A stretch of DNA of 64,000 bases. Origin: Nitrospiraceae bacterium. GTDB lineage: Bacteria > Nitrospirota > Thermodesulfovibrionia > UBA6902. The DNA lies in the NCBI GenBank assembly GCA_003599275.1, contig QZJG01000074.1:5352-69351 (forward strand), written 5' to 3'. Every line of letters begins with the position of its first letter. Positions within the stretch are counted from its first letter, which is position 1. A model generated the notes under the pieces. That model was not told the origin of the DNA. It saw only the letters and a program-made list of their open reading frames with translations, and ran no database searches. This document shows, piece by piece, positions 185 to 50,344 of the stretch. Made by a program: the position numbers and the translations under genes.

Positions 185-521
185 ATTGAATACCTCCTTA
201 TTTTTTTCATTTCTTTAAACCTCCCTGAAATTAACTCCTCTTGTGTTGTTGAAACCATAAGCTTTTCTTTTTCCTGTCACCTCCTTCCAAGTCATAATCC
301 GCGCCGCATCCGGGTGCTGCATAAAAACGGGCGTGAAGTCTTTTGATTTTGCATTACGGATTATTGTCTTTGTAATTTTCATGGTTAATATTTTGATTGC
401 GAAAGCATGCGCCTTCGAATAAATGTAATCTTTGATAAAGCAAAGGATATGCCACGTTATTTTTGCTTTACAACCCCTTAAAAACAATGGGAAATTTATG
501 GACACCTGCAGGAATGACACT

Positions 522-908: not shown

Positions 909-1595
909 ATGGTCAAAAAAATCCTTATAGTCGATGATGAGGCCCTGATACTCAGCGGCCTGTCAAAGTGCCTCGCAAACAGCAACACCGTAATAAAAAC
1001 CGTTGCAAACGGAGCTGATGCGCTCAAGGAAATCAGCTTATGTCCTTACGACCTCTGCTTTTTAGACGTCCGTCTTCCGGACACCAACGGTCTTTACCTC
1101 ATGAAAAAGATAAAGAGATTCTCTTCTGAAACCAAGGTCGTTATCATGACCGCCCATCCTTTAAGTGATGATCTGAGGAAGGAGGTTGAGGACAACGCCT
1201 TCAATTTTATCAGCAAGCCCTTTGACCTTTCACATATAAAGGCGATCGCCGAGCTGGCTTTGGGTAAAGACGGAAGCCGCAATGAGAGCCGTGCGTCCTG
1301 CGATCAGGAATTCAAAGAAGGAAGGCTGTTTTTGAGAAAACCGCTGGAAAAGACCATTGATTATTTTGCCGGCGTATTTGAAGGCGGGGAGCTGAAGCTG
1401 TTGACGCTCACGGGAAGTGTCATCGACATAAGCGACGGCGGGATCGGACTCAAAACCGGTTACAACCTCAAACCCGGTTATATGATAAGGTTCTCGGGTG
1501 AGACAATCCCTTACGAGGTGGGGGTCGTCAAATGGAGCATGCCTGCGGGGGACAATTCTTTCAGGGCGGGAATCGAGTTCATGAGAAGGGCTTAA
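909..1595 (+). CDS. response-regulator receiver domain fused to a PilZ (c-di-GMP binding) domain
   Basis: The N-terminus is REC-like (KILIVDDE...DLCFLDVRLPD...KP). The C-terminus carries the PilZ signatures RLFLR (RxxxR) and DISDGG (DxSxxG). Confidence 0.85.
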   Translation: MVKKILIVDDEALILSGLSKCLANSNTVIKTVANGADALKEISLCPYDLCFLDVRLPDTNGLYLMKKIKRFSSETKVVIMTAHPLSDDLRKEVEDNAFNFISKPFDLSHIKAIAELALGKDGSRNESRASCDQEFKEGRLFLRKPLEKTIDYFAGVFEGGELKLLTLTGSVIDISDGGIGLKTGYNLKPGYMIRFSGETIPYEVGVVKWSMPAGDNSFRAGIEFMRRA

Positions 1596-1680
1596 AAAAC
1601 AGGGTGTAGGGAATTAGGGTATAGGGGGTAGTTTGCGGCAGTTCCTGCTCCCTATACCCTAATTCCCTACACCCTGTTTT
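1596..1680. terminator. 31-bp perfect-stem hairpin built from GGGTRTA heptamers; bidirectional terminator between convergent genes
   Basis: AAAACAGGGTGTAGGGAATTAGGGTATAGGG (1596-1626) is the exact reverse complement of 1650-1680. The loop is 23 nt, with an A-run on the left and a T-run on the right. It fills the gap between the stop at 1595 and the stop at 1679-1681. Confidence 0.8.
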
Positions 1681-1900
1681 ATGATAATGCCTTAATCAGC
1701 ATCAGAATAATTCCAATATTCATAGTTACAAGGACGCCCATCATCCATTTAATAAGTTTTGTATCACTTTCAATTCTTGCAAGACGTTCTTCCTGTCCCA
1801 ACTCTGCCATAACTTTGGCCGCTTCCTTTGCCTTTTCATCAGGCGCCCCTGCCGCCCTTAACGCCTCATAAACTTCAGCAATCATTTTACTCATTATCAT
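1679..1900 (-). CDS. small coiled-coil protein with a C-terminal TM helix (DUF1640-like)
   Basis: The ORF reads ...EVYEALRAAGAPDEKAKEAAKVMAEL...IKWMMGVLVTMNIGIILMLI. The start is probably the ATG at 1894, 7 nt after GGGGG. Confidence 0.55.
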   Translation of the reverse strand: MIMSKMIAEVYEALRAAGAPDEKAKEAAKVMAELGQEERLARIESDTKLIKWMMGVLVTMNIGIILMLIKALS

Positions 1901-1980
1901 GCCCCCGCTTTTTTTAATATTGTTACGCCCTACTGTTTAACCGTAATACAAAAAAAAATTATTGTCAATTTATAAAGGCA

Positions 1981-2083
1981 GCGTATAGCGGGTAGGGAAA
2001 AACGACAAAAAATAGCATGTCGGGAGCTGCTTTTTTGTTTTTATACACGCTACCCCCTATACCCTAATTTCCTACACCCTGTT
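1981..2083. repeat. degenerate heptamer-repeat arms (G-rich left, C-rich right) flanking a short hairpin plus T-run
   Basis: The left arm is GCGTATAGCGGGTAGGG (1981-1997). The right arm is ACACGCTACCCCCTATACCCTAATTTCCTACACCCTG (2045-2081). The right arm is nearly identical to the right arm of the 1596-1680 hairpin. Confidence 0.5.
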
Positions 2084-3460
2084 TTATTCTATTCCAAACT
2101 TCTTTATCTGATATCTGAATGAATCATAACTTATCCGGAGGAGCTTTGCGGCAAGGGACCTGTTATTCCCCGTCCTCTGGAGCGCCTGCATTATCAGGTC
2201 TTTCTCCAATTCATCGAGCGAGACGCCTTCATCGGGGAGGACGCACCTGTGACTTGACTGGCATGTGGTCCTTACCGTCTCCAGCGGCAATTGAGAAGGG
2301 TCAATTAATTCGGAATTTTCCAGCACGACAAGCCGTTCAATGACGTTTTTCAGTTCCCTGACGTTGCCCGGCCACGTATAAGAAAGGAGTATCTTTTCAG
2401 CCTCGGGGGAAAAGCTTGCGGGATTGTTCTTTTTGTATTCCGCCTTGAAGTGTGAAAGAAAATGCCGCGCAAGAAAGAGTATGTCCTCTTTCCTCTCCCT
2501 CAGTGGAAGTATGTGCAGGGAAAAGGTGTTCAGCCTGTAAAACAGGTCCAGCCTGAAGTCCCCTTTTGCAACAGCGTCCTGAAGGTCCCTGTTTGTGGTG
2601 GCTATGACGGTAACTTCTATCGGTATCTCTTTTTTCCCGCCGATGCGTCTTATGGTCCTTTCTTCAAGCACCCTCAATAGCTTGCTCTGCAGGCCCATCT
2701 TCATGTCTCCTATTTCATCAAGGAGAATGGAGCCGCTGTTTGCCAGCTCAAAGAGTCCTTTCTTTTCAGACTTTGCGTCCGTAAAGGCGCCCTTTTCATA
2801 GCCGAAGAGCTCGCTCTCGAGGAGTGTTTCCGGGAGGGCGGTACAGTTGATGGTTATGAAAGGCGCGCATCTCAGGGTACTGTCGCTGTACAGCAGCGAA
2901 TGAACAAAGCGCGCCATAAGCTCCTTGCCGGTCCCGCTTTCACCCGTGATAAGCACGGTCGAGACGCCGGCGAGGGCGATCTTTTCGGCCTTTTCCCTCA
3001 GCTCCCTTATGACCCTGGATTCCCCGACGAGGTCCTTCTTGAAGGTGTCCAGGTATACCTTCCTCAGGTAATCGACCTCATGCTTGAGACTCCCCTTTTC
3101 GAGGAGCTTCTCTATGACAATTTTTACCTCGTCGATATTGAGGGGCTTTGTAAGATAATCCGTGGCGCCGAGCTTCATGGCCTTTACCGCGGTCTCTGCA
3201 GAGTCGTCCGCCGTGAGCATGACAACCTCTGCGTCTATCTCCCTCTCCCTGATCTCCTGGAGGATATCCAGACCGTTGGAATCAGGGATGTTTACATCCA
3301 GCATTATTACGTCGGGAGACCAGGAGCGTATTTTCTCGATGACCTCGTCGGCTTCGGTCACCGCCATCACCTCATAGCCCTGTTTTTTCAGGGACCTTGA
3401 AATCATCGAGATGATAAGCTCCTCGTCGTCCAGAAGAAAAATTTTACCTTTGCTTTTCAT
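2084..3460 (-). CDS. sigma-54-dependent response regulator (NtrC/AtoC family: REC + AAA+ + HTH)
   Basis: REC N-terminus, Walker A GESGTGKE, a GAFTDA (GAFTGA-type) sigma-54 contact loop, and a C-terminal Fis-type HTH. Confidence 0.95.
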   Translation of the reverse strand: MKSKGKIFLLDDEELIISMISRSLKKQGYEVMAVTEADEVIEKIRSWSPDVIMLDVNIPDSNGLDILQEIREREIDAEVVMLTADDSAETAVKAMKLGATDYLTKPLNIDEVKIVIEKLLEKGSLKHEVDYLRKVYLDTFKKDLVGESRVIRELREKAEKIALAGVSTVLITGESGTGKELMARFVHSLLYSDSTLRCAPFITINCTALPETLLESELFGYEKGAFTDAKSEKKGLFELANSGSILLDEIGDMKMGLQSKLLRVLEERTIRRIGGKKEIPIEVTVIATTNRDLQDAVAKGDFRLDLFYRLNTFSLHILPLRERKEDILFLARHFLSHFKAEYKKNNPASFSPEAEKILLSYTWPGNVRELKNVIERLVVLENSELIDPSQLPLETVRTTCQSSHRCVLPDEGVSLDELEKDLIMQALQRTGNNRSLAAKLLRISYDSFRYQIKKFGIE

Positions 3461-3470
3461 ATTTAAAATC

Positions 3471-3540
3471 AGGTGTAAGGCAGAGGTGGTAGCAGGTAGT
3501 TTTTTGTTCCCTACACCCTACTCCCTCTGCCCTACACCCT
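3471..3540. repeat. imperfect heptamer-based hairpin between the kinase and regulator genes
   Basis: AGGTGTAAGGCAGAGGTGGTAGCAGGTAG (3471-3499) faces CCCTACACCCTACTCCCTCTGCCCTACACCCT (3509-3540). About 24 of 29 positions are complementary. Confidence 0.5.
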
Positions 3541-3544
3541 TTCC

Positions 3545-4978
3545 CTAACTTTCCTTTCTGACCGGCAAAACGATCGTGAATGTTGTCCCCTTGCCCTGTT
3601 CGCTTTCTATGCTTATGCCCCCCCCGTGCTCTTCTACAATGCGCCTTGTAATGGCCAGCCCCATTCCCGTGCCTTTGGCCTTGGTAGTGAAAAAAGGCTG
3701 AAAGATCTTCTTCACCAGCTCCCTGTTGATCCCTTTACCGGTGTCGCCTATCTCTATCCTGATCGCTTTTCCATCGGGGTTGCGTGACGTATTGATGGTC
3801 AGGGTACCTCCGCCGGACATGGCGTCAACCGCATTCAGCAGAAGATTAAGAAACACCTGCTGCAACTGCATCTGGTCGGCCATTATGACCGGCAGCCTGC
3901 TGTCGAAATTTTTAACTACCGCGATCGCCTTTAAGCCGTTGCCGGATGAAGCCGACGGGATTTTGGTTGAAAACGTCATACATATGTCGATGATGTTGTT
4001 GACATTCGTTGGCGTAAGCTGGGGGACAGGCGGTTTTGCAAAATTAAGGAGCCCCTTTAACAGGGCGTCTATCCGTCTTACCTCGCCGATGACCTGCGTC
4101 AAGACAGTCCTGTCTTCCGCTGAAAGGCTGGAATCCTCCGAGAGGACTTCCATCGACACTTTGATGCCTGCCAGCGGGTTTTTGATTTCATGAGCAAGCC
4201 CGGTCGCTATCTCGCCGCACACCCTCAACTGCTCCGTCCTCTGCATGTTGAGTATCTGCTGTTTCAGAGAGCTTGCCATCTCATTAAAGGAAGCCGCGAC
4301 CTCGCCGAACTCGTCTTTCAGCGAAGCGACCCTGTAATCCAGGTCGCCTGCCTTCAATCTCCGCGTCGCATCGAGGATCGTATTGAGCGGCTCGGTGATC
4401 GCCTTTATAAAGATCAGGGACAGGACCGTCGCAAGGATGGGGCCGAGGGCCAGCACGATAAAAAGCGTAGACTTTGTGTCCGCTATCTTTTGCAGCGCCG
4501 ATCTGGTTTTTTCATCAAGCCTGCTGCTCGTCATTGTTATCATGCTGTTGACTTCCGCTATAAGGTCTTCACCGATCCTGAAGGCTTTTTCCGCTTTTGC
4601 GTGCAAAGCGCTGAAGTTGTCGCCCACGATCAGGATCCCGGTCACGGATTCCTTGTATTCATGTATATGACTTCTCAAGTCAACAAGCTTCTTCATCACT
4701 ATTTCATTGTGGTGGCAGTTAAAGCAGGTGTCCGCCACTTTCGCCATGTTGTTTATGGTCGTCAATATGGTTTTATTGTCCCGGTCTCTTGATTTGAGGT
4801 CTGTCTGTATCCTTGCAATATGTATCAGCAGATGTTCCCGCAGTATTTCAATCTGATGGAGTTTAATAAGGTTGTCAAGCCTGGATGTGGTGGTCTCGAT
4901 GGTGAAGATTACATAGACAGTCGCCAAAAAGAAGATCAGGGTAAAGAGCGCCAGTCCTGTGATGATTTTTTTCTTCAT
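3545..4978 (-). CDS. sensor histidine kinase (2 TM, periplasmic domain with CxxCH, HAMP, HisKA, HATPase)
   Basis: TM1 covers residues 7-27. CFNCH sits at residues 85-89 (nt 4712-4726). TM2 is at about residues 172-195, followed by a HAMP domain. The H-box is HEIKNPL and the ATPase carries a G-box (GTGMGL). Confidence 0.9.
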   Translation of the reverse strand: MKKKIITGLALFTLIFFLATVYVIFTIETTTSRLDNLIKLHQIEILREHLLIHIARIQTDLKSRDRDNKTILTTINNMAKVADTCFNCHHNEIVMKKLVDLRSHIHEYKESVTGILIVGDNFSALHAKAEKAFRIGEDLIAEVNSMITMTSSRLDEKTRSALQKIADTKSTLFIVLALGPILATVLSLIFIKAITEPLNTILDATRRLKAGDLDYRVASLKDEFGEVAASFNEMASSLKQQILNMQRTEQLRVCGEIATGLAHEIKNPLAGIKVSMEVLSEDSSLSAEDRTVLTQVIGEVRRIDALLKGLLNFAKPPVPQLTPTNVNNIIDICMTFSTKIPSASSGNGLKAIAVVKNFDSRLPVIMADQMQLQQVFLNLLLNAVDAMSGGGTLTINTSRNPDGKAIRIEIGDTGKGINRELVKKIFQPFFTTKAKGTGMGLAITRRIVEEHGGGISIESEQGKGTTFTIVLPVRKES

Positions 4979-5063
4979 CTATTATAAAGAGTTCTTCAGA
5001 AAGAATAGGATTACCGTTATAATAATAATCTCAGGCCCATTTCTGCAAGGGAAAAAAACGCGG

Positions 5064-5079
5064 GGCAAATTAAATGCCT
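5064..5079. promoter_or_regulatory. sigma-54-type -24/-12 element in the divergent intergenic region; orientation ambiguous
   Basis: The minus strand reads AGGCATttaatTTGCC. The plus strand reads GGGCAAattaaATGCC. Both keep GG-N10-GC because the core is palindromic, and the minus strand fits the consensus slightly better. Confidence 0.35.
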
Positions 5080-5113
5080 GATACAAAACAGGACGCAAGA
5101 CGAATGTTGTATA

Positions 5114-5122
5114 TGCTAAAAT
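5114..5122 (+). promoter_or_regulatory. extended -10 (TGcTAAAAT) sigma-70 promoter candidate for the 5158 operon
   Basis: TGCTAAAAT lies 36 nt upstream of the ATG at 5158. No good -35 element is present. Confidence 0.3.
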
Positions 5123-5157
5123 ATCAGGGTCTGAGGTTTGGAGCCAGGGGGTAATTG

Positions 5158-5727
5158 ATGTTGAACGTGATAAACAGGCGTTTCAGGACCGGCTTTATTG
5201 CCCTGATATCGTTGACGCTGATATCGGCGTTATTAATAAGCGCGATCGCTTTTTATTCTTATTCCGACAAAGAGCTGGGCGGGACTTACGGACAGAAAAT
5301 CGATACTATTTCCGAATTCAGGACGACCCTTGTAAAAGACTCCCTGCTGATATTCATACCGCCCGCCGTTATGGCCGTAATCTTTGTAATAACAGCCATT
5401 GTTCTGTATACCCACAGGATCGTCGGACCTCTGGTAAGGATAAAGGCCGTTACCCGGCAAATATCCGAAGGCGATTTCAACATACTTGTCAAGTTAAGAG
5501 AAAAAGACGCCATAATGCCCCTTGCGGATGCGCTGAATAAATTGTCCTCGGGATACAGAGAAAGATTTTCCATACTGGGCAAGGCCCTTGATGAAATGTC
5601 CAGGGACGCAGCGGAGATGCGGCAGGCCGTTGAAAGAGGAGATATGGAAGCAGCCGAAGCCAAAAGAGAAGAGTTAGGGAAAAAGGCCGGAGAGATAAAA
5701 ACCATGCTTTCCGGGATCAGGTTATGA
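5158..5727 (+). CDS. two-TM membrane protein with a HAMP domain and coiled-coil tail (no output domain)
   Basis: The ATG at 5158 lies 7 nt after GGGGG. Two hydrophobic helices are followed by a HAMP-like stretch, GPLVRIKAVTRQISEGDFNILVKLREKD. The stop overlaps the next start (ATGA). Confidence 0.7.
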   Translation: MLNVINRRFRTGFIALISLTLISALLISAIAFYSYSDKELGGTYGQKIDTISEFRTTLVKDSLLIFIPPAVMAVIFVITAIVLYTHRIVGPLVRIKAVTRQISEGDFNILVKLREKDAIMPLADALNKLSSGYRERFSILGKALDEMSRDAAEMRQAVERGDMEAAEAKREELGKKAGEIKTMLSGIRL

Positions 5728-6515
5728 AAAAAAGATTAATTGTCCCTCTGCTTCTTGTCATGGCCTCCATTATTATCGTGTACGCCGTGTTGGACAATCC
5801 GCACGACTTCTCCATGGAAGACTGCCAGCTCTGCCATCTGAATTACGAACAGGACCCTAAAAGACTGGCCATGCCCGTATCGGACCTCTGCAAAAGATGT
5901 CATGAGCAGATAAATGCGAAATCATCGCACCCTGTAAATATTTATCCGTCAAAGGCGGCAGTCCCTCCGGACCTGCCGTTGAGAAACGGGATGATAGCTT
6001 GCAGCACATGCCACGATATTCACAAAGAGAATTCCAATGTCTTCGGAGAAAAGACCTTCTTCCTGAGAAGACCGTATACGGGAAGGAGTTTTTGTCTCTC
6101 GTGTCATACTCAGGGGATAGATTTGACGAAGCATTCGGACACAATCGACACCGCCCACATGGGGAGCAGATTCAAAGTTACAGATCAGTCCGAGCCGCTC
6201 GATTCCATTTCCAAAGAATGCATCAGTTGCCACGGCGGCGTACTCGGCAAGAATGCGGTGTTCGGACTCGGCAGCGGAGTATGGACCCACGATGATCCAA
6301 CCCATTCTCATCCGATAGGCGTCGATTACGAAGAGAGCAGGACGGAAAGGAAGGACGCAAAATTAAAACCCATGTCCATGATCGACAAAAGGATAATATT
6401 TTTTGACGGGAAGATAGGGTGCGGGTCGTGTCATAACGTGTATTCTGAGTCTCAAATGTCCCTCGTGATGAGCAACAAGGGCAGCAGTCTCTGTCTTGCG
6501 TGTCATGAATTATAA
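5724..6515 (+). CDS. heptahaem c-type cytochrome with N-terminal signal/anchor
   Basis: Seven CxxCH motifs: CQLCH, CKRCH, CSTCH, CLSCH, CISCH, CGSCH and CLACH. The N-terminus is hydrophobic. Confidence 0.9.
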   Translation: MKKRLIVPLLLVMASIIIVYAVLDNPHDFSMEDCQLCHLNYEQDPKRLAMPVSDLCKRCHEQINAKSSHPVNIYPSKAAVPPDLPLRNGMIACSTCHDIHKENSNVFGEKTFFLRRPYTGRSFCLSCHTQGIDLTKHSDTIDTAHMGSRFKVTDQSEPLDSISKECISCHGGVLGKNAVFGLGSGVWTHDDPTHSHPIGVDYEESRTERKDAKLKPMSMIDKRIIFFDGKIGCGSCHNVYSESQMSLVMSNKGSSLCLACHEL

Positions 6516-6518
6516 AAG

Positions 6519-6583
6519 ACAGGGGGTAGTGTGTAGGGGGTAGTTTTTTCCGCTCCCTACCCCCTATGCCCTACACCCTAATT
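6519..6583. repeat. imperfect heptamer-based hairpin after the cytochrome gene
   Basis: ACAGGGGGTAGTGTGTAGGGGGTAG (6519-6543) faces CTCCCTACCCCCTATGCCCTACACCCTAATT (6553-6583), with a T-run in the loop. Confidence 0.5.
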
Positions 6584-6596
6584 TACGGGAGGAGTT

Positions 6597-7190
6597 ATGG
6601 AGCATAAGAGGAAACGGTACATCACAGATAAGGTTTATCAGTGGAGGCTGGCGTTACGGATCATATCCATCTGTTCTGTTTACCTGCTTTTGAACCTTGT
6701 ATTGTTCAATTATCTGTCCTACAGAAAAATCGAGTTTCTGAGATGGAAAATGAACCTGCCGTTTGAGACTACGGGTGAAATAGTCGAGCCTTACCTCATA
6801 TCCTCTACAGCGATAACAATGTCCCTTGCCGTGGCCACGCTTGTCATATACATAATCTTCATCCTCAATAAAACGTCAGGGCCGGTGTACAGACTGAAAG
6901 CGGACATGGAAAAAGCGGCAGACGGCGATCTTTCGACAAACATTTACCTGCGCAGCGGCGATGATTTCAAGGAAACGGCAAAAGACTGCAACAACATGGT
7001 ATTGTCACTGAGAGGCAGGTTTGCCCGTATAAAAGAAGGCTTCTCCTCAGCGGAAAAGTCCCTGGAAAAAATAGAGTATGTAAAAGACAGGCCGGAGATT
7101 GCCGCCAAAGAATGCAAAGCCCTTGCAGATACAATAGAGGCGTTAAAGAAAGAAATTTCATCCGTAAAGGTGGAAAATGCTGCAGGCTGA
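6597..7190 (+). CDS. second two-TM HAMP/coiled-coil membrane protein (paralogue of 5158..5727)
   Basis: The architecture matches 5158..5727 and the HAMP segment is similar (GPVYRLKADMEKAADGDLSTNIYLRSGDD). It overlaps the GspE-like start by 14 nt. Confidence 0.7.
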   Translation: MEHKRKRYITDKVYQWRLALRIISICSVYLLLNLVLFNYLSYRKIEFLRWKMNLPFETTGEIVEPYLISSTAITMSLAVATLVIYIIFILNKTSGPVYRLKADMEKAADGDLSTNIYLRSGDDFKETAKDCNNMVLSLRGRFARIKEGFSSAEKSLEKIEYVKDRPEIAAKECKALADTIEALKKEISSVKVENAAG

Positions 7191-8724
7191 CAAAAGGACC
7201 CCTGAAAAAAATCGCCGTCATCTGAAGGCCGAAGACCTGCCGAACGTCCCTCTTGTGATGAATGAGATATCGTCCCGTTTCATACGTGAAAACATGATCG
7301 TGCCCATAGATTTCAGGAACAATATTTTAAAGGTGGTAATGGCAAATCCCGGGGACAAAGCGACCATTGACGCCGTCAGGGTGGCGGCAGCGGCAGACGT
7401 CGAGGTATATTCAACCGGCCCGGACATCCTGGAAGAGTACATATCAAAGTTCTACGGGCAGGAGCCGCAGAATATAAACAAAATCATTGAGGACATCGGC
7501 GGAGAAGGTTTTGAATTCCTGAAAGACGATGAAGAAGACGTAGGACACCTCAAGGACCTCGCGTCAGAGGCCCCTATAATAAAACTCGTCAACATGCTCA
7601 TATCGAGGTCTGTCGAAAGCCGGGCCAGCGACATCCACATAGAGCCTTTTGAAGACGAGCTGAAGATCAGATACCGCATAGACGGCGTTTTATATGAAGT
7701 CGAATCGATACCCAAAAAACTGCAGGCGGCCATTATCTCGAGGATAAAGATAATGGCAAAGCTCAACATCGCTGAAAGGAGGCTGCCGCAGGACGGACGC
7801 ATCAAGCTCAAGGTCGCCGAGAGGGAGATAGACATGAGGGTCTCCACAATACCGGTGCTTTACGGTGAAAGCGTGGTAATGAGAATACTCAGCAAAGAAG
7901 GCATTGTCGTAGACCTGGACCTCCTCGGGTTTTCATCGCAGATGCTGTCCGCATTCAATCAGCTCATCAAAAAACCGAACGGCATCATACTGGTCACCGG
8001 GCCTACCGGCAGCGGAAAGACGACGACCCTTTACGGCGCCCTTGATAAAATAAATTCCCCGGACAGGAAGATCATCACCGTCGAAGACCCGATAGAGTAT
8101 CAGCTCAATGGAATAAACCAGATACAGATGAAACCGCAGATAGGCTTAAACTTTGCAACAACCCTCAGACACGTAGTCCGGCAGGACCCTGATATAATAA
8201 TGATCGGCGAAATCAGGGACCTCGAGACCGCCGAGATCGCCATACAGTCCGCCCTGACCGGACACCTTGTGTTTTCGACATTGCATACAAACGACGCCCC
8301 AAGCGCGATAACGAGACTTATCGACATGGGGCTTGAGAACTTTCTTCTTTCCTCCACCATCAGGGGAATACTGGCCCAGAGGCTTGTAAGGGTCATCTGC
8401 CCCGTGTGCAAAGAAATCGACACGTCAACGGCGGACCGGGAAGAGCTCGGGGTTTTGGGCATCGGCAGTGACGCGCCCCTTTATAAAGGCAGGGGCTGTG
8501 AGAAATGCACCCATACCGGTTATTACGGCAGGTCCGGGATATTCGAGCTGCTCGTCGTGACGGATGAAATACGAAGACTTGTCCTGAAGGACGCCGACTC
8601 CGGACAGATAAGGGAAGCGGCCAGAAAAGACGGCATGAAGACCCTGATGGAAGACGGCGCTGAAAAAATACGGTCGGGGGTCACAACCCTGAGCGAAATT
8701 TTGAAAGTAACGCAGGAGGCTTAA
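7177..8724 (+). CDS. gspE: type II secretion / type IV pilus assembly ATPase (GspE/PilB family)
   Basis: A T2SSE N-terminal domain, Walker A GPTGSGKTT, Asp and His boxes, and a C-terminal CPVC...CEKC zinc motif. The RBS is AAGGTGGA. Confidence 0.95.
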   Translation: MLQADKRTPEKNRRHLKAEDLPNVPLVMNEISSRFIRENMIVPIDFRNNILKVVMANPGDKATIDAVRVAAAADVEVYSTGPDILEEYISKFYGQEPQNINKIIEDIGGEGFEFLKDDEEDVGHLKDLASEAPIIKLVNMLISRSVESRASDIHIEPFEDELKIRYRIDGVLYEVESIPKKLQAAIISRIKIMAKLNIAERRLPQDGRIKLKVAEREIDMRVSTIPVLYGESVVMRILSKEGIVVDLDLLGFSSQMLSAFNQLIKKPNGIILVTGPTGSGKTTTLYGALDKINSPDRKIITVEDPIEYQLNGINQIQMKPQIGLNFATTLRHVVRQDPDIIMIGEIRDLETAEIAIQSALTGHLVFSTLHTNDAPSAITRLIDMGLENFLLSSTIRGILAQRLVRVICPVCKEIDTSTADREELGVLGIGSDAPLYKGRGCEKCTHTGYYGRSGIFELLVVTDEIRRLVLKDADSGQIREAARKDGMKTLMEDGAEKIRSGVTTLSEILKVTQEA

Positions 8725-8725
8725 A

Positions 8726-9922
8726 TTGGCTATCTTCTCGTACAAGGCCGCCTCCGCCGACGGGACTGTCGTAGAGGGTGTTCTGGAGGCTGCGGACGAG
8801 AGGGCAGCGGTCGAGAGGATCAAAAATTCCGGGGTCATCCTCCTGAAGATCGCCGCGCAGGGGGAAAAGACCGGGAAGAAATTACTGTTCAAAAAAACAT
8901 CAGGCGATGCGCTCCTTACGTTCACAACAGAGCTTTCCATCCTTTTGGCCGCAGGACTTCCCCTGGACAGGTCGCTGAATATACTCTCCGGAATTTCTGA
9001 AAGCGCAGAGATGAAAGGCGTGATCAGGACCATCCTGAAATCCATCCGGGAAGGCAGCTCGTTTTCCGAGGCCCTGCACAAGCATCCGAAAATATTCCCG
9101 AGGATTTATATAAACATAATAAAAGCCGGTGAGTCGGGCGGCGTGCTCAATGTGGTGCTGGACAAGCTGAATGAATTTCTTGAAACCACAAGAGAACTGA
9201 AAGAACATGTCATCTCTTCAATGATCTACCCTGTGATACTCCTTGCTACAGGCGGCATATCGATACTTATCCTCCTGACCTTTATGCTCCCGAAATTCAG
9301 CAAAATATTTTCGGAGCTCGGCGCATCGCTCCCCCTTTCCACACAAATGCTTCTCGCGTTCAGCAATGCAGTCAAGGCGTATTGGTGGTTCTTTCTGCTG
9401 TCCGCGGTCATAGGGGTAATGGCCTTCAGGAAATACATAGCCACCGAAAACGGCAGATACCGGTTTGATTCTTTTAAATTAAAGGTAATGGGAGACGTAA
9501 TAAGAAAACTCGAGACCGCGAGGTTCTGCAGGACGTTAGGCACCCTGCTGAAAAGCGGCGTGCCCATGCTCCAGGCGCTGAACAATGCAAAAGACGTTGT
9601 AAACAACCAGGCCATAGCCACAGCCATTGCTTCCGTGTCCAAAGGAGTCAAGGAAGGCAAAGGCATTACGGCTCCGTTGTCCGAAGCCGGGGTCCTGCCG
9701 CCGCTGGCCCTCTCGATGATACAGGTAGGCGAAGAAACGGGCCAGCTTGACAATATGCTGATCACGGTCGCAGTTACCTATGAAAAGAACCTGAAGGTCG
9801 CGATAAAGAGATTTATCAGCCTGCTTGAGCCTGCCATGATACTCGGAATGGGCCTGATAATAGGCTTTATAGTCCTCTCAATGCTCATGGGAATATTCAC
9901 CATATCGGAAGTACCGTTTTAG
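8726..9922 (+). CDS. gspF: type II secretion / type IV pilus inner-membrane platform protein (GspF/PilC family)
   Basis: TTG start 8 nt after GGAGG. The protein has the duplicated T2SSF domain architecture with three TM segments. The N-terminus is typical (MAIFSYKAASADG). Confidence 0.95.
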   Translation: MAIFSYKAASADGTVVEGVLEAADERAAVERIKNSGVILLKIAAQGEKTGKKLLFKKTSGDALLTFTTELSILLAAGLPLDRSLNILSGISESAEMKGVIRTILKSIREGSSFSEALHKHPKIFPRIYINIIKAGESGGVLNVVLDKLNEFLETTRELKEHVISSMIYPVILLATGGISILILLTFMLPKFSKIFSELGASLPLSTQMLLAFSNAVKAYWWFFLLSAVIGVMAFRKYIATENGRYRFDSFKLKVMGDVIRKLETARFCRTLGTLLKSGVPMLQALNNAKDVVNNQAIATAIASVSKGVKEGKGITAPLSEAGVLPPLALSMIQVGEETGQLDNMLITVAVTYEKNLKVAIKRFISLLEPAMILGMGLIIGFIVLSMLMGIFTISEVPF

Positions 9923-9926
9923 GAAA

Positions 9927-10073
9927 GCGTGTAGCGTATAGCGTGTAGCGTGTAGCGTGTATAAAAAAATTATGCGGAATGCAAGATTCATCCCGAATAT
10001 GTCGAGACCAATTTCAAATTTTAAATTTAAAAAAGACTTACCCTCTACACGCTACACGCTATACGCTACACGC
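9927..10073. repeat. 29-bp perfect-stem hairpin of GCGTRTA heptamers enclosing the start region of the first pseudopilin gene
   Basis: GCGTGTAGCGTATAGCGTGTAGCGTGTAG (9927-9955) is the exact reverse complement of 10045-10073. The 89-nt A/T-rich loop contains all candidate start codons. More CTACACG/CTACCCG heptamers follow up to 10140. Confidence 0.8.
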
Positions 10074-10574
10074 TTTCCCCTGCCCTCTACACGCTACACG
10101 CTCTTCCCTACCCGCTACCCGCTACACGCTACACGCTCTTCCCTGCGAAAGCAGGGCTTCACTCTGCTCGAGCTCATAATCGTAATGCTCATCGCCTCAC
10201 TCGTACTCGGACTTTCCACCGTTGTTTTTACCAATATGCTGCCGTCGGCAAGACTCGACGCAACGGTCAGGAAAATATCGGCCACCGTAAGACACGCCAG
10301 ATCGCTTGCAAAAGTCAACGGCGAAACGGAGAACGTCATAATAGACCTCGATGCAAGGAGGTTCGGGATGGAAGGCAGAGATTACGAAGCCATCCCCTCC
10401 GACATAAATATTAAAGTGCTGGACCCGCTGTCCGGAGAAACGAGCAGCGGAAAGTATACCCTGACTGTTAAGGCAACGGGCGGTATCGAAGGTGGGACCA
10501 TAGTAGTCTGGAGCAAAAAAAAGACCGTCCATATAGATATTGACCCGATTGTCGGAGCAGTGGTGGTTAAGTAA
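9957..10574 (+). CDS. GspH-like minor pseudopilin (prepilin-type G|FTLLE cleavage/methylation site); start uncertain
   Basis: RKQG|FTLLELIIVMLIASLVLGL is followed by a GspH-like body (ATVRKISATVRHARSLA). The only in-frame starts are GTG 9957, ATG 9972 and ATG 9999. Confidence 0.75.
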   Translation: MYKKIMRNARFIPNMSRPISNFKFKKDLPSTRYTLYATRFPLPSTRYTLFPTRYPLHATRSSLRKQGFTLLELIIVMLIASLVLGLSTVVFTNMLPSARLDATVRKISATVRHARSLAKVNGETENVIIDLDARRFGMEGRDYEAIPSDINIKVLDPLSGETSSGKYTLTVKATGGIEGGTIVVWSKKKTVHIDIDPIVGAVVVK

Positions 10575-10590
10575 GCAGCAAGGACAAGCA

Positions 10591-11079
10591 ATGCTGAATT
10601 TAACAACTTCAATAATTTCAAATCTCATATTTCAAATTTTAAATTTTAAATTTCAAAAAGACTTACCCCCTACTCCCTACTCTCTTGCCCCTTGCCCCTC
10701 CCGCAGGGCCGGCTTCACTCTGCTTGAAATCCTCGTGGCCCTTTCAATAACGGGCATTGCGCTTATAGTCGTGCTGCAGCTTTTTTCAGCCAATTTAAAG
10801 AATATCTCCGTCTCCGAAGACTATGTCTTCGCAGTCTCGAAAGCAGAGGCCCGGATGAGAGAGCTGCTGGAAGGTCAAAATCTCCAGGAGGGTTCATGGC
10901 GCGAGACCACGGCTGACGGATACAGGGTGGACATTGCCATAAAGAATTCTCAAAAGGAGAGGACGCAAAATCTGAAAGTGTCTCTCATGGAGATCGACCT
11001 GACAATACATTGGACAAACGCGGCAAAAGAGAGGTCGTTCACATTAAAATCAGCGAAGCTGGTAAAGAAAAGGGTGTAA
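10591..11079 (+). CDS. prepilin-type minor pseudopilin (GspI-like, tentative)
   Basis: The ATG at 10591 lies 6 nt after AAGGA. The cleavage site is SRRAG|FTLLEILVALSITGIALIVV. Confidence 0.7.
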   Translation: MLNLTTSIISNLIFQILNFKFQKDLPPTPYSLAPCPSRRAGFTLLEILVALSITGIALIVVLQLFSANLKNISVSEDYVFAVSKAEARMRELLEGQNLQEGSWRETTADGYRVDIAIKNSQKERTQNLKVSLMEIDLTIHWTNAAKERSFTLKSAKLVKKRV

Positions 11080-11089
11080 GGCAGAGACA

Positions 11090-11752
11090 ATGAACAATTC
11101 AAGATTCAAAATTCAAGATTCAAAATCTGATAACATTACTAATCTCAAATCCTCCTGCCCCCTACACCCTGCATCAAAAGGTTTCACCCTGCTTGAATTG
11201 ATGATCTCCATCACTATCCTCGGGGTCATTGTCCTGATCGTAAGCAGCGCCATGAAGGTGAGTTTCCGCTCTGTGAGCGCCGGGGAGAAAAAAATGGAGT
11301 CCCTCGAAAGGGTCCGGGCTTCCTTGAAAATTGTGGACTCGCAAATCCAGTCTTCAATCCCGCTCACTTACCTGACAGGCAGCGACCTTAAATACTATTT
11401 TTCCGGGCATAAGAGGTCTCTCAGGCTTTCAACAAATTATTCCCTGTGGAATGAAAACAGGGGATATGTCGTAGTTGCCTACAGAATTGTATCAGACGAT
11501 CACGGGAAAAAGTCTTTATATGCGTCTGAAAACATTGTAGGCGTCAAAGGTGAAAAAGAGGTGAAACTCCTCGACGGTCTTGACGAGATTTATTTTGAAT
11601 ACTTCTATACGGACCCGACGAAAACAGAAGGGGCATGGATAGAGGAATGGAAGTTTTTCAATTTTCCTGAAAAGATAAGATTAAACATAGTTGACGGGAC
11701 AAAGCGTTTTACCCTCGTCATGCCGTTGAGGGTAAGAAGTCTCGGCTTATAA
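11090..11752 (+). CDS. prepilin-type minor pseudopilin (GspJ-like, tentative)
   Basis: The only in-frame start is ATG 11090. The cleavage site is ASKG|FTLLELMISITILGVIVLIV. Confidence 0.7.
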   Translation: MNNSRFKIQDSKSDNITNLKSSCPLHPASKGFTLLELMISITILGVIVLIVSSAMKVSFRSVSAGEKKMESLERVRASLKIVDSQIQSSIPLTYLTGSDLKYYFSGHKRSLRLSTNYSLWNENRGYVVVAYRIVSDDHGKKSLYASENIVGVKGEKEVKLLDGLDEIYFEYFYTDPTKTEGAWIEEWKFFNFPEKIRLNIVDGTKRFTLVMPLRVRSLGL

Positions 11753-11804
11753 AACTGGAATACGGAAATAGCCTTCATAAATATGAAGACTTTATATAAA
11801 GCAT

Positions 11805-11834
11805 GTCATTCCCGCATATCTTTAGCGGGAATCC
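11805..11834. repeat. REP-like hairpin GTCATTCCCGC-N9-GCGGGAATCC
   Basis: Read directly. The same motif family recurs at 23147-23200, 24835-24858, 42713-42846 and 60155-60226. Confidence 0.65.
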
Positions 11835-11921
11835 ACCCTTCGCTCAGGATAACAGACGACCACCGAAGGACTCAGCGTAACCTGTACTCAGGACAGGCTC
11901 TGCCGAACCATGTATGCCCGA

Positions 11922-12080
11922 TTAATTGCCGCAGCAAATACGTCTCATTCTTTTCTTGCCTGTCGGCGATACGGACATGATAACATCCACCTTTTTTCCG
12001 CAGAGACTGCAGAGACGCGCTGACCCCTTCGCCTCGGCCCTTGCGGACACATCGGTCTTTGACTTCACTTTTCCGGCCAT
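11922..12080 (-). CDS. 52-aa basic Cys-rich (CxxC...CC) mini-protein, function unknown
   Basis: The ATG at 12080 lies 8 nt after a strong GGAGG. The product is MAGKVKSKTDVSARAEAKGSARLCSLCGKKVDVIMSVSPTGKKRMRRICCGN. The ORF track shows it only as part of the longer 11922..12179 frame. Confidence 0.5.
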   Translation of the reverse strand: MAGKVKSKTDVSARAEAKGSARLCSLCGKKVDVIMSVSPTGKKRMRRICCGN

Positions 12081-12354
12081 AATACTTACCTCCTCTCTTT
12101 TTATAACTTCCTGTACATACAAACATGACTTGCGCGCATTCGCCAGGCACACCGCTTCTTCACAAAAATGTGTCCTCATCTTCAGGATTTGAAAGTTGAG
12201 GAAACAGCAGGGCGGCGCTAATACGCAGCAAAATAATATAATTCAAACCTCAAAATATTGTCAAGGCCGCCAACTGTGCCGTGTCAAGCCCGGATTTTAA
12301 TCATCTGTATCTTGTGTATTGCAATACTGCCATGCAAAATTTTACGATTAACCT

Positions 12355-14748
12355 ATGGATGAACACACGTTCCGCGTACTTGAATTCGACAGGGTCCTCG
12401 AAATGGCTTCTGTGTTTGCCGTTACTGCGCCGGGAAAATACGCAGTTCAAAAAACAAAACCCCTCAAAAATATCGAAGAAGTAAAAAGGCGGACCGGCCT
12501 TGTATCCGAATGCCGGAATTTTCTTTCTGAAGGACGGTCTCCCGGCATAGAGCATTTCGACGACCTCACTCACCTGTTTCAGAAAATCAGGCCTGCCGAC
12601 GCAGTCCTTGCGCCCATGGAATTAAGGGCCTTCCTCCCGCTCTTCTATTCTTCATTCAACCTCAGGATATTAGGCGAAGGCACTTCATACCCCGGACTCG
12701 CCGGAATAGTTTCAGGGCTCATGACCCATCCGCATATCAGAAAGGCGATTGAGGGAGCAATAGACAGGGAAGGGAAAATCCGTGATGAGGCATCTCCGGA
12801 GCTCTCCCACATCCGGAGGACCATCAAGTCGATCGAGAACAGGATCAGGGGAATACTCGAAGTGATTTTGAAACAAAAAGAGATGGCGGCATACATGCAG
12901 GACTTCTATCTGGCAGAGAGGAACAACAGGTGGGTGGTCCCTGTGAAAAGGGGCTCCAAAGGGAATGTGCCGGGCGTAGTCCATGACATTTCAAATACCG
13001 GGGAGACAGTCTATGTCGAACCTTACGCCATTCAGATGCCGGGCAATGAGCTTGAATCTCTGCGGGCGGAAGAGAAACTTGAAGAATACAGGATACTAAG
13101 GGACCTGGCGTCCCTCGTGAGAGGGAGCCTTTCGGAAATTGAAGAGGATTACCGCATTGTTGCAAAGGTCGATGCATTGCAGGCCATAGCGGGCTTTTCA
13201 GGACAGATGGACATGGCGCCGCCTGAAATGACTGAAAAGAGTTATATGAAGATCATCAGGGGACGACATCCTCTCCTCTGGAAGACATTAAAAAAAGAAA
13301 GCCGTGAGGGGTCCCTTGTCCCGCTTGATGTCGAAACCGGCAGAGACCATTCGTGCATGGTAATTACCGGGTCCAATGCAGGCGGCAAGACAGTGACTCT
13401 CAAGACAATAGGCGTGCTGGCCCTCATGTCGCTTTCAGGGATGCACGTCCCTGCAGGCACGGGAACGGTAATCCCGTTTCTGAACAACGTTCTTGCGGAC
13501 ATCGGTGATGAGCAATCCATCGAACAGAACCTCTCCACCTTCTCGGCACACATCAAACGTATCTCCGGGATCATTCGCCGGAGCAGCGCCCACACGCTGA
13601 TTATTATTGACGAGCTCGGCACAGGCACAGACCCTGAACAGGGCGGAGCGCTTTCATGCGCCATTTTGAGGAAGCTGAAACAGCGGGGTGCGCTCACGCT
13701 TGTATCAACTCACCTCGGCACGCTCAAGGCTTTTGCCCATTCCGAGCCGGGCATGATAAACGCAGCCATGGAGATGAAGGAGACAAGCTCCAACGGAATC
13801 TCAACATACAGACCCACCTATAACCTTGTCATGGGAGAACCCGGGACATCACATGCCTTTGAGATTGCGGAATCACTCGGACTGGATGCCGACGTCATTG
13901 AAGAGGCAAGGGAATTCATCAAAGATGAGGGCGGGCGGATTGAATCGCTTATCACGGAGCTTAAACAGAAAACCGGGGACCTCGATAACAGGCTGAAGGA
14001 GACGGAAAAGCTGAAAATGGAAGTCGAGCATCTGAGGGCGGACCTGAAAGAAGAAAGCTCGCGTCTTAAAGCAATGGAAAAGGAAACACTGACAAAGGCG
14101 CTGAAGGACGCGGAAGAGGTTGTGCGCAAAACAAAGCGTGAGGCGCGGGACATTATCGAGACCCTGAAAAGGGCGACTCTCAAGGAGGCGGAAGAAGCGG
14201 CAATATCACTCGATAGAAAGCTCGATGAAATCGTGACCCTGCAAAAAGAGCATTCACCTGAAAAGGCCCTGCGGCTTAAAGAAGTCAGGGAAGGACAGCG
14301 TGTCTTCGTCAATACTTTCGGGAAACACGGCATAGTCAGGACGGTAAATGTGAGAACGCAAAGGTGCAGGGTAATAGTCGAAGGGAAAGAAATCACGGTC
14401 CCGCTCGATGAACTTTCAGGACCGTCAGCATCTCACACGCAGGTCCCAGCAGAAAAACGCAGGGACATGCCGCGATACACACATGCGGAGGCAACCGGAG
14501 ACATCAATATACCGGGGGAATTAAACGTCGTCGGCAAGCGCGTCGATCCTGCGTTATCTCTCATTGAACGCTACCTTAATGACGCATCACTGGCAGGTCT
14601 TGAGCGTATTAAAATAATCCACGGCATAGGCACAGGAATACTTTCAAAAGCGATAAGGGCTTATCTTAAAGACCATCCCCTCGTTGAAAGCTTCAGGAAA
14701 GGCGATGAAGACGAAGGCGGCGAGGCAGTGACTGTTGCGGCGCTGTGA
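12355..14748 (+). CDS. mutS2: endonuclease MutS2 (MutS ATPase + C-terminal Smr domain)
   Basis: Walker A GSNAGGKT, a long coiled-coil linker, and a C-terminal Smr domain (LNVVGKRVDPAL...IIHGIGTG). Confidence 0.95.
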   Translation: MDEHTFRVLEFDRVLEMASVFAVTAPGKYAVQKTKPLKNIEEVKRRTGLVSECRNFLSEGRSPGIEHFDDLTHLFQKIRPADAVLAPMELRAFLPLFYSSFNLRILGEGTSYPGLAGIVSGLMTHPHIRKAIEGAIDREGKIRDEASPELSHIRRTIKSIENRIRGILEVILKQKEMAAYMQDFYLAERNNRWVVPVKRGSKGNVPGVVHDISNTGETVYVEPYAIQMPGNELESLRAEEKLEEYRILRDLASLVRGSLSEIEEDYRIVAKVDALQAIAGFSGQMDMAPPEMTEKSYMKIIRGRHPLLWKTLKKESREGSLVPLDVETGRDHSCMVITGSNAGGKTVTLKTIGVLALMSLSGMHVPAGTGTVIPFLNNVLADIGDEQSIEQNLSTFSAHIKRISGIIRRSSAHTLIIIDELGTGTDPEQGGALSCAILRKLKQRGALTLVSTHLGTLKAFAHSEPGMINAAMEMKETSSNGISTYRPTYNLVMGEPGTSHAFEIAESLGLDADVIEEAREFIKDEGGRIESLITELKQKTGDLDNRLKETEKLKMEVEHLRADLKEESSRLKAMEKETLTKALKDAEEVVRKTKREARDIIETLKRATLKEAEEAAISLDRKLDEIVTLQKEHSPEKALRLKEVREGQRVFVNTFGKHGIVRTVNVRTQRCRVIVEGKEITVPLDELSGPSASHTQVPAEKRRDMPRYTHAEATGDINIPGELNVVGKRVDPALSLIERYLNDASLAGLERIKIIHGIGTGILSKAIRAYLKDHPLVESFRKGDEDEGGEAVTVAAL

Positions 14749-50029: not shown

Positions 50030-50344
50030 ATGATAGACAGAATAAGAAGAAGCCTGAACACGGGACTGGACCGCGTCAAATGGTTCGCGACATTCCTTGC
50101 CGAAAGGACCAAAGCCGAGACGTCAATTGCAAAGCTCCTTTATCAGAGCAGCAAGCTTGAGGACAGGATAGACGATCTCTACCGGGACATCGGCAGGCGG
50201 GTCATGGAGCTAAACGAAAAAGGAGAGAAATCCGTATTGAAGGATTTTGTCGTTCAGCAGGCGCTCGGTGAAATAAAGCACATGAGAGAGGCCTCGGATG
50301 AATTCAGAAATCAGGCACGGGACCTCAGCAAGCTGCCGGAATGA
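50030..50344 (+). CDS. 104-aa coiled-coil protein, unknown function
   Basis: The ATG at 50030 follows GAGGAGGG. The stop overlaps the prepilin peptidase start (ATGA). Confidence 0.55.
   Translation: MIDRIRRSLNTGLDRVKWFATFLAERTKAETSIAKLLYQSSKLEDRIDDLYRDIGRRVMELNEKGEKSVLKDFVVQQALGEIKHMREASDEFRNQARDLSKLPE

Follow-up and report, generated by a model that had tools for sequence, protein, structure and literature searches.

Repeat DNA in the long leaders of three consecutive GspH/I/J-like pseudopilin genes of a Nitrospiraceae bacterium

The DNA analyzed here is a stretch of 64,000 nucleotides from a Nitrospiraceae bacterium (contig QZJG01000074.1, positions 5,352 to 69,351; hereafter “the window”), and its subject is a cluster of gsp-like genes, in which three consecutive genes for minor pseudopilins follow the genes for an assembly ATPase and a platform protein. 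All three pseudopilin genes carry canonical prepilin cleavage sites, which are preceded by long leaders encoded in part by heptameric repeat DNA. Such long repeat leaders are real, common in the clade and probably for the most part neutral, and they look like tolerated repeat DNA rather than a new machine.

The gspEFHIJ-like gene cluster

The cluster comprises gspE- and gspF-like genes, followed by genes coding for GspH-, GspI- and GspJ-like proteins (genes 1, 2 and 3). A prepilin peptidase gene is located further downstream.

7177-8724, plus strand: GspE-like assembly ATPase with T2SSE and MshEN domains (Pfam T2SSE, E = 2.5e-143)
8726-9922, plus strand: GspF-like platform protein (Pfam T2SSF, E = 1.5e-60); its stop codon TAG (9920-9922) abuts a hairpin
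9972-10574, plus strand: gene 1, GspH-like minor pseudopilin; Gly(-1) codon 10155-10157, mature protein of 138 amino acids (aa)
10591-11079, plus strand: gene 2, GspI-like minor pseudopilin; 41-aa leader, Gly(-1) codon 10711-10713, mature protein of 121 aa
11090-11752, plus strand: gene 3, GspJ-like minor pseudopilin; 31-aa leader (MNNSRFKIQDSK...), Gly(-1) codon 11180-11182, mature protein of 189 aa
50341-51147, plus strand: bifunctional prepilin peptidase, the enzyme expected to remove the leaders (A24_N_bact, E = 8.8e-34; Peptidase_A24, E = 7.1e-20)

An earlier reading of the window, made from the sequence only, had proposed three consecutive pseudopilin genes with canonical cleavage sites, and this description holds. 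The sites read RKQG↓FTLLELIIVML.. (gene 1), RRAG↓FTLLEILVAL.. (gene 2) and ASKG↓FTLLELMISI.. (gene 3), and hence all three proteins show the Gly at -1, Phe at +1, Glu at +5 and subsequent hydrophobic stretch that define a prepilin. The Pfam family N_methyl matches each of them with 28.6-32.8 bits (cut-off 21.2), as does TIGR02532. The best family matches are GspH, GspI and GspJ in this order, every one of them below the curated NCBIfam cut-off (38.7 versus 80 bits for GspH, 39.9 versus 44.35 for GspI and 17 versus 64.85 for GspJ; PRK08808, 27.3 versus 295). A comparison of the three mature proteins with the sequences in the PDB yielded zero matches. Within the 64-kb window, there are no further prepilin genes besides genes 1-3, and neither gspG nor gspK nor gspD adjoins the cluster. 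The low family scores and the lack of these three genes nearby distinguish the window from the GspH/I/J proteins of type II secretion systems (T2SS).

Loci for comparison were obtained by using an alignment of GspH homologues to search the species genomes of GTDB, which produced 42 related loci (L001-L042, from Thermodesulfovibrionia, other Nitrospirota and Syntrophorhabdus) and 38 outgroup loci. The closer relative L081, which is one and the same sequence as L082, was added by protein look-up. L081 has the identical E-F-H-I-J order, likewise without G, K or D, and is 77% identical to the window in the mature parts. Mature lengths of 138 and 121 aa are conserved in nearly all orthologues, and G(-1), F1 and E5 are invariant.

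Start codons and leader lengths

Prepilin leaders are cytoplasmic and are cleaved at the cytoplasmic face of the membrane (PMC4471445, PMC10191384), and the lengths described so far range from 6 to 26 residues, extending to approximately 30 (PMC4471445). The nearest starts and the leader lengths proposed earlier for genes 1-3 agree with a census of in-frame start codons, in which ATG, GTG and TTG are absent within 30 codons of the cleavage site in all three genes. Gene 1 can start at ATG 9999 (53 aa), ATG 9972 (62 aa) or GTG 9957 (67 aa). The nearest start of gene 2 is ATG 10591 (41 aa), preceded by TTG 10540 and TTG 10549, which are also in frame, lie inside the end of gene 1 and lack a Shine-Dalgarno (SD) sequence. 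Gene 3 has ATG 11090 (31 aa) as its sole in-frame start. SD pairing is mid-range at ATG 10591 (-5.1 kcal/mol; a moderate AAGGA about 7 nt before the codon) and at ATG 11090 (-5.4 kcal/mol).

For gene 1 we favor ATG 9972 as the start, which would give a 62-aa leader, because the sequence it carries, ATGCGGAATGCAAGAT, resembles the start ATGCARRATGCA that is conserved in gspH of L001, L006, L007 and L010. A further ATG at 9979 lies in frame +1 of the gene. The public annotation by the Joint Genome Institute (JGI) places the start at the internal ATG 10186 (P0001, 129 aa). We rejected this call, because the G↓FTLLE segment, invariant and conserved across all homologues, would be lost, together with part of the N-terminal helix. 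Automated gene calling handles such 5' ends poorly.

Conservation of the starts is not confined to gspH. The gspJ genes of the window, L081, L006, L010 and L005 all begin with ATGAAYAAT (MNNS/L) and have leaders of 31, 57, 30, 49 and 50 aa, respectively, all of them in frame. The repeat-rich middle of the leader varies in length between species, and the frame is always kept; for instance, the gspJ array is longer in L081 than in the window by 78 nt, a multiple of 3. The three leaders of the window are hydrophilic and bear net charges of +10, +3 and +3 (genes 1, 2 and 3).

Long leaders are kept in frame

The window and the 42 related loci together contain 105 H/I/J-type genes. A canonical start lies at most 15 codons from the G↓F junction in 58 of these genes and is missing from this interval in the other 47. 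Walking upstream from codon -15 of the 47 genes, a start is reached before a stop in 46 cases in frame 0, compared with 14/47 in frame +1 and 10/47 in frame +2 (frame 0 versus 24/94 in the control frames, Fisher p = 4e-18). Even the proximal 15 codons, where frame 0 is devoid of stops, contain 17 and 24 stops in the control frames. Leaders longer than 15 aa are found also in 34/133 outgroup pseudopilin genes, all 34 of which are open to a start. The leader lengths that had been taken as established (less than 10 aa, or 15-30 aa for type IVb leaders) are therefore too narrow. Since the upstream frame, unlike the control frames, reaches a start first, the long leaders are almost certainly translated. 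Among 48 long leaders of the window and its relatives, 45 are net positive (mean +3.3), and as a group they are hydrophilic and free of stretches that resemble a membrane span.

These counts bear on a different view of the genes, according to which translation begins on a non-canonical codon beside the cleavage site, namely CTG 10143 in gene 1 and similar codons elsewhere, so that the leaders are short and the openness upstream is accidental. The in-frame CTG, which the sequence-only reading had put at 10141-10143, is actually located at 10143-10145 and would give a textbook MRKQG↓F leader; moreover, the C-rich heptamers upstream of it are open in three frames. Accidental openness, however, predicts that approximately three quarters of the genes meet a stop first, while a start comes first in 46/47 genes of the ingroup and 34/34 of the outgroup. 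The CTG has no SD sequence either (+1.9 kcal/mol), and scanning for near-cognate codons (CTG, ATT, ATC, ATA) detected none in the 15 codons before the site of gene 2, and an ATT at -16 as the nearest one in gene 3. Furthermore, the upstream ATGs and first codons are conserved across species. Non-canonical initiation therefore appears improbable.

A case apart is gspH in a Syntrophorhabdus metagenome-assembled genome (L034, approximately 3970-4010), which has no in-frame canonical start. An ATG shifted by a single base relative to the reading frame is situated right at the cleavage site (ccATGGGTTTACC); a frameshift or a sequencing error could be the cause, or the leader could be extremely short.

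Repeat DNA in the leaders

Tandem arrays were called with Tandem Repeats Finder. Period-7 arrays occur in all three leaders, in accordance with the earlier proposal that the leader DNA is repeat DNA:

9926-9961, plus strand: AGCGTGT x5.1, G-rich heptamer array, upstream arm of gene 1
10039-10144, plus strand: C-rich heptamer array CTACACG/CTACCCG of about 13 units, translated as ..PSTRYTLYATRF.. and stop-free in all frames
10045-10137, plus strand: CTACACG x13.3 in the gene 1 leader, as called by the program
10614-10699, plus strand: gene 2 leader repeats, AATTTCA-type x6.3 (10614-10657), then TACTCCC x2.7 and CTTGCCC x2.3
11097-11123, plus strand: ATTCAAG x3.9 in the gene 3 leader

The leader of gene 3 combines A/T-rich heptamers (11096-11126) with a C-rich arm (11152-11170). 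Genes 1 and 2 share an A/T-rich core, as had been suggested and as two repeat families (D3, D4) confirm. In the A/T-rich array of gene 2 (10629-10657), units containing TAA are confined to the other two frames, and two units whose sixth base would produce an in-frame TAA carry C instead (CAA, Gln).

In the related genomes, tandem repeats (period 5-16, nearly all 7) make up 19.4% of the bases that code for leaders, compared with 1.16% in the remaining 339 kb, an enrichment of about 17-fold. Repeats are present in 20/48 long leaders, their units are lineage-specific, and all 20 repeat-bearing leaders have an in-frame start. Tandem-repeat coverage of outgroup leader DNA amounts to 3.9%. In some relatives, the leaders consist of palindromes resembling repetitive extragenic palindromic (REP) sequences, which are translated as ..NPPIPPFTKGG.. 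or ..SPSPHPSPHRGEGWGEG...

Lineage-specific hairpins composed of tandem 7-8-nt units and reverse-complement units (e.g., GACACGGA x4 / CCGTTTCA x4) were noticed in L007/L010 (approximately 4420-4530), L008 (3877-4012) and upstream of gspH/I/J in L019/L025/L027/L031, often wholly within the leader open reading frame (ORF). We did not find a description of such an “inverted tandem array” architecture in the literature.

Arrays of this kind raise the question of whether the heptamer tracts are contingency loci, in which slippage by 7 nt switches the tip pseudopilins on and off, as the sequence-only reading had also considered. A unit of 7 is not a multiple of 3, tracts separate the start from the gene body in all three leaders, array lengths differ between species (as in gspJ of L081), and phase variation through heptamer repeats is known (PMC12721329). 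Simulated changes of 7 or 14 nt abolish the starts of genes 2 and 3, and this part of the proposal stands; gene 1 is lost only with -7 and +14, since ATG 9979 rescues it for +7 and -14. The tracts themselves are less suited to slippage, as perfect runs inside the leader ORFs reach 2.6-2.9 units at most and matching within the arrays is about 75% (the longest perfect run overall, 3.3 units, lies in the non-coding arm). In addition, the repeat-bearing leaders of relatives are in frame without exception, and the length differences between species are multiples of 3. A scan of metagenomes with the mature GspH returned distant relatives only, and look-ups of the exact proteins (P0001, gene 3 and GspF) returned no contig. 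On balance, a slippage switch is very improbable.

Repeats are also difficult to assemble, and together with the truncation of gene 1 in the source annotation and the lack of gspG, gspK and gspD next to the cluster, this might suggest decaying pseudogenes or assembly artefacts. Yet, all three ORFs are full length, with invariant residues kept and mature lengths as in the orthologues, and other species, among them L041 and L081, show the same architecture in assemblies made independently. A wrong heptamer count would break the frame two thirds of the time, while the frame is intact in 3/3 genes here and in 20/20 leaders of relatives. We consider decay or misassembly scarcely credible.

The same hairpin family between other genes

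Hairpins of the same family are found at four intergenic sites of the window, where in each case a stop codon precedes the element and the next start comes after it:

1596-1680, no strand assigned: heptamer hairpin with GTAGGGN / NCCCTAC arms, directly after a stop codon
1978-2078, no strand assigned: heptamer hairpin (AGCGTATAGCGGGTAGGG ... ACACGCTACCCCCTATACCC)
3472-3545, no strand assigned: heptamer hairpin between two minus-strand genes; the downstream start is outside the element
6521-6580, no strand assigned: heptamer hairpin that separates a cytochrome gene from ORF 6597; a strong SD sequence (GGGAGGAG) and an ATG come after it and are not part of it

The pattern CCTACNCCCTACNCC has 17 matches, compared with 0.69 expected, which correspond to seven elements between 1.6 and 11.2 kb. 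At none of the four intergenic sites does the start fall within the element. Multiple copies of an imperfect palindrome at intergenic sites of one genome are a trait of REP sequences and of MITEs (miniature transposable elements with inverted repeats); here the arms are tandem arrays of variable length.

As the reverse complement of a G-arm/loop/C-arm element is again G-arm/loop/C-arm, the C-rich arm always faces the downstream gene. No frame of this arm contains a stop, and all residues that it can encode are neutral or basic (P, T, R, Y, L, H); TAG is found in the G-rich arm. An element with these properties would therefore be pre-adapted for read-through at the 5' end of a gene.

The A/T-rich module of the leaders was considered as a generic genomic repeat as well and rejected, since its occurrences, in the window, L041 and L081, are all at the starts of pseudopilin genes.

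The distribution of the CCCTAC-type hairpins is uneven. All seven are clustered within approximately 10 kb (1596-11170) around two-component, cytochrome and gspEFHIJ genes, and they are essentially nil in the other 52 kb (11200-64000). There is no compositional anomaly.

RNA structure at the three starts

The pairing arms at the starts of genes 1 and 3 are arranged as follows:

9922-9955, plus strand: 5' arm of a perfect 34-bp stem, within the AGCGTGT array; contains TAG stops
9962-10038, plus strand: A/T-rich loop of 77 nt with ATG 9972, ATG 9999, ATG 9979 and the core AATTTCAAATTTTAAATTTAAAAAAGACTTACCC
10045-10078, plus strand: 3' arm of the 34-bp stem, within the coding leader of gene 1
10141-10156, plus strand: CCCTGC-GAAA-GCAGGG hairpin over the LRKQG codons of gene 1, including CTG 10143-10145
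11071-11086, plus strand: G-rich arm GGGTGTAAGGCAGAG, which pairs with 11152-11170 and overlaps the stop TAA (11077-11079) of gene 2 and the SD-like AAGG of gene 3

The perfect stem reported for gene 1 is real, and its length is 34 bp (9922-9955 / 10045-10078) instead of the 29 bp given before; the small hairpin on the LRKQG codons was recovered where it had been described. The region 9915-10175 folds with a minimum free energy of -91.3 kcal/mol (z = -9.2; 0/200 shuffles as good), which is the most extreme value among 107 regions tested. Within this fold ATG 9972 and ATG 9999 lie in the loop (9999 centrally), and only GTG 9957 is in the stem. Imperfect stems had been proposed for the other two genes. 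The region of gene 2 is no better than chance (z = -0.2), and for gene 3 an interrupted stem is indeed present; its stability is modest (z = -1.6, 14/200 shuffles as good). In gene 3 alone, the stem spans both an SD-like AAGG and the codon that ends the preceding gene. A permissive Rfam scan of 9700-11400 revealed no known RNA family.

Structures of this kind might be functional cis-regulatory RNA elements rather than passengers. The gene 1 duplex could then serve as a substrate for an RNase III-type enzyme or as a stabilizer of the gspEF 3' end and keep GspH levels low, the gene 3 stem could mask the SD sequence until ribosomes translating gene 2 melt it, and the repeat number could tune expression. 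The extreme fold of gene 1 argues in this direction, and so does the position of its stem, whose first base is the final one of the gspF stop codon and whose 3' arm is inside the ORF. Uninterrupted double-stranded RNA of at least about 20 bp is found in gene 1 only (34 bp). Such a duplex is a plausible RNase III substrate, and because the 3' arm is inside the ORF, cleavage would sever the start codon of gene 1 from its body; it is likewise plausible that the stem lowers or processes gspH mRNA. Coupling of gene 3 translation to that of gene 2 is plausible too, given that the SD-like AAGG and the stop codon of gene 2 both fall within the stem of gene 3.

A precedent exists in Haemophilus influenzae, where an (ATCTTTC)n array in the 5' untranslated region (5'-UTR) of hmw1A pairs with a G-rich arm, and the resulting long hairpin is cut by RNase III and controls expression (PMC12721329). 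Both cases feature a heptamer array and a complementary arm rich in purines or pyrimidines, which form a long mRNA hairpin at or just upstream of the start of a gene for a surface structure. In hmw1A, however, the hairpin resides wholly in the 5'-UTR, the array has at least 10 perfect units and phase variation is proven, whereas in the window the 3' arm is part of the coding leader, perfect tracts do not exceed 3.3 units and the structure is predicted from the DNA.

Several results speak against a regulatory role. Gene 2 lacks significant structure, and many orthologues (L003, L006, L007, L010, L011, L020) lack the hairpin altogether. Across the 48 long-leader genes, start-enclosing pairing is not enriched (mean of 13.4 pairs versus 14.6 in arm-wise shuffles; no gene with p <= 0.05), and the excess of structure upstream of pseudopilin genes over the other intergenic regions of these loci is not significant (30% versus 14% with z < -3, p = 0.20). 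The earlier idea that the hairpins sequester the start sites is not borne out in its original form, given that the gene 1 ATGs are in a loop, gene 2 is unstructured and enclosing pairing does not exceed that of controls; a more limited form of it may hold for gene 3. We regard a regulatory role of the repeat hairpins as unlikely.

A stronger version of the idea appears more doubtful still, namely that the paired arrays, with the G-rich arm before the start and the complementary C-rich arm in the leader, represent a selected, clade-specific regulatory device. Processed in an RNase III-like manner or melted by upstream ribosomes, the duplex would determine in what stoichiometry the tip proteins of the pseudopilus are made. 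Gains or losses of 7-nt units would adjust the output of each minor pseudopilin or switch it stochastically, and the cleavable leader would be the only site in a protein able to embed such an RNA device.

Origin of the leaders

The closest relatives have short leaders: gspI and gspJ of L041 and gspI of L081 encode 7, 7 and 5 aa, respectively, and in both loci an ATGA joins the stop codon of the preceding gene to the start of gspI. For this reason, the long leaders of the window are a derived state, gained by expansion or replacement at the 5' end. The start of the gspI leader in the window (10590-10635) is about 90% identical in DNA sequence to the gspH leader of L041 (3887-3932), which indicates that leader modules move between paralogues.

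Repeats in a leader that probably tolerates them

Building on the observed anatomy of the leaders, the conservation of frames and starts, the repeat enrichment and the leader composition, we consider it probable that generic intergenic heptamer/hairpin repeats have expanded into the cytoplasmic, cleaved and barely constrained leader of otherwise intact GspH/I/J-like genes. Translation would most likely start at ATG 9972 (or 9999), 10591 and 11090 and yield leaders of 62 (or 53), 41 and 31 residues. Short tandem repeats and hairpins account for most of the leader DNA, with an A/T-rich heptamer module at and immediately beyond the start codon and then C-rich heptamers that belong to the intergenic hairpin family. 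As a class III leader, this segment is expected to stay in the cytoplasm and to be removed after Gly(-1) by the prepilin peptidase (50341-51147), and since it is cytoplasmic and cut off, its sequence and length should be barely constrained. The C-rich arm, without stops in any frame and with neutral or basic residues only, would fit the positive-inside rule, and all that selection would have to ensure is that the stretch remains open and in phase with a start. We infer translation from the ATGs, cleavage by this peptidase and near-neutrality of the repeats. Colonization of a leader that is tolerated because it is cleaved off had been one of three possibilities raised earlier, and it is the best supported one, in view of the intergenic copies, the roughly 17-fold enrichment and the frame kept open in 46 of 47 genes.

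A number of observations weigh against this interpretation. In gene 1, none of the candidate starts has an SD sequence, CTG 10143 occupies the exact position where an ATG would yield the canonical leader, and the leader is open in two frames out of three, which makes the ORF evidence for this gene alone weak. The leaders measure 31-62 aa to the nearest or conserved ATG, and those of 41-62 aa are beyond the range given in a review (PMC4471445). Over its first 38 nt, the leader of gene 3 matches L081 at 38/38 positions, compared with only 70% identity for the mature DNA; overall, the leader start modules (window 11090-11126 and L081 3919-3956, and the modules of the window and L041 given above) are approximately 90-100% identical and mature coding DNA 70-81%. 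This conservation is not what a purely neutral stretch predicts. An A/T-rich module that is more conserved than mature DNA, and occurs only at pseudopilin starts, hints at a function on the nucleotide level, e.g., as an initiation region, and is also in line with the regulatory view discussed above. Finally, both arms of the gene 1 stem mirror an irregular unit exactly, and the gspH hairpin of L041 and the gspJ hairpin of L081 keep the architecture with different, still complementary units, which in L041 could mean selection for structure. Either the pairing has been selected or the arms were copied from each other, and templated copying accounts equally well for the mirrored irregular unit.

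The leaders correspond to the class III signal peptides of GspH/I/J proteins and type IVb pilins in that a hydrophilic, positive segment ends in Gly and is followed by FTLLE and a hydrophobic helix, in that the genes lie beside gspE/gspF with an A24 prepilin peptidase in the genome, and in that the leader is cytoplasmic and removed (here as a predicted step). They differ by their length of 31-62 aa and by consisting of low-complexity, translated repeat DNA. Palindromic repeats that are absorbed in frame at tolerated positions of a protein are known as Rickettsia palindromic elements (RPEs) and as MITE- or REP-like elements (PMC10969869); in the window, too, palindromic repeat DNA of the intergenic type has been absorbed in frame, with translation predicted. 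While an RPE is a fixed element of about 150 bp, the repeats described here are lineage-specific arrays of 7-8 nt, and they concentrate in a segment that would later be cleaved off, leaving the mature protein unchanged. Heptanucleotide repeats near starts, often without an SD sequence and with copy numbers that differ in 7-nt steps between relatives, have been described as TAACTGA of Beggiatoaceae and cyanobacteria (PMC4679880), in Geobacter (PMC2700814) and as the short tandemly repeated repetitive (STRR) sequences of cyanobacteria. In contrast to the arrays in the window, those repeats are upstream of the start and untranslated, have no inverted complementary array and are composed of unrelated units. 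We found no report in the literature of repeat-encoded pseudopilin leaders or of pseudopilin leaders exceeding 30 aa, nor of this hairpin family in Nitrospirota.

If the leaders are translated as proposed, prepilin leaders can greatly exceed the textbook 6-30 residues and can be composed of translated repeat DNA whose frame is maintained in dozens of uncultured species. Gene calling is affected, as the source annotation cut gene 1 and pilin finders that assume short leaders will miss such genes, and it bears on the tolerance of the prepilin peptidase and of targeting through SRP, the particle for signal recognition, and through Sec. The leaders would also constitute a natural example of selfish or slippage-prone DNA lodged in a coding sequence with the mature protein unaffected. 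Should the hairpins turn out to regulate, they would represent a new way of embedding an RNA control element in an ORF.

Neighboring genes and further repeats

An ORF at 6597-7190 (approximately 190-197 aa, without Pfam match in the window) is located directly 5' of gspE and overlaps its start. A counterpart occupies the same position in L081 (1-286), and the protein may be an unrecognized component of the system. On the minus strand, the cluster is adjoined by a PilS/PilR-like pair (2084-4978), consisting of a HAMP histidine kinase (3545-4978) and a sigma-54-dependent response regulator (2084-3460). A search for sigma-54 motifs found none near the cluster and none ahead of gspE or the pseudopilin genes, and a promoter/terminator scan of 5500-12500 gave nothing beyond shuffled expectation.

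Two further repeat families were noticed. Inverted octamer arrays of the type CACAGAGR ... CTCAGTGT extend over 603-735 (with 439-454 and 836-851) and have 28-nt arms, which are 86% complementary. They are situated in the divergent region between ORF 215-520 (minus strand) and a response regulator gene (909-1595, plus strand) and are flanked by two outward-facing motifs resembling sigma-54-type promoters (TGGCATATCCTTTGCT, minus strand; TGGCATATTAATTGCT, plus strand). Downstream of gene 3, the sequence GTCATTCCCGCATATCTTTAGCGGGAATCCA (11806-11840) appears to belong to a palindromic repeat family GTCATTCC...GGAATCCAG, members of which are also found in or upstream of the pseudopilin leaders of L001, L002 and L004.

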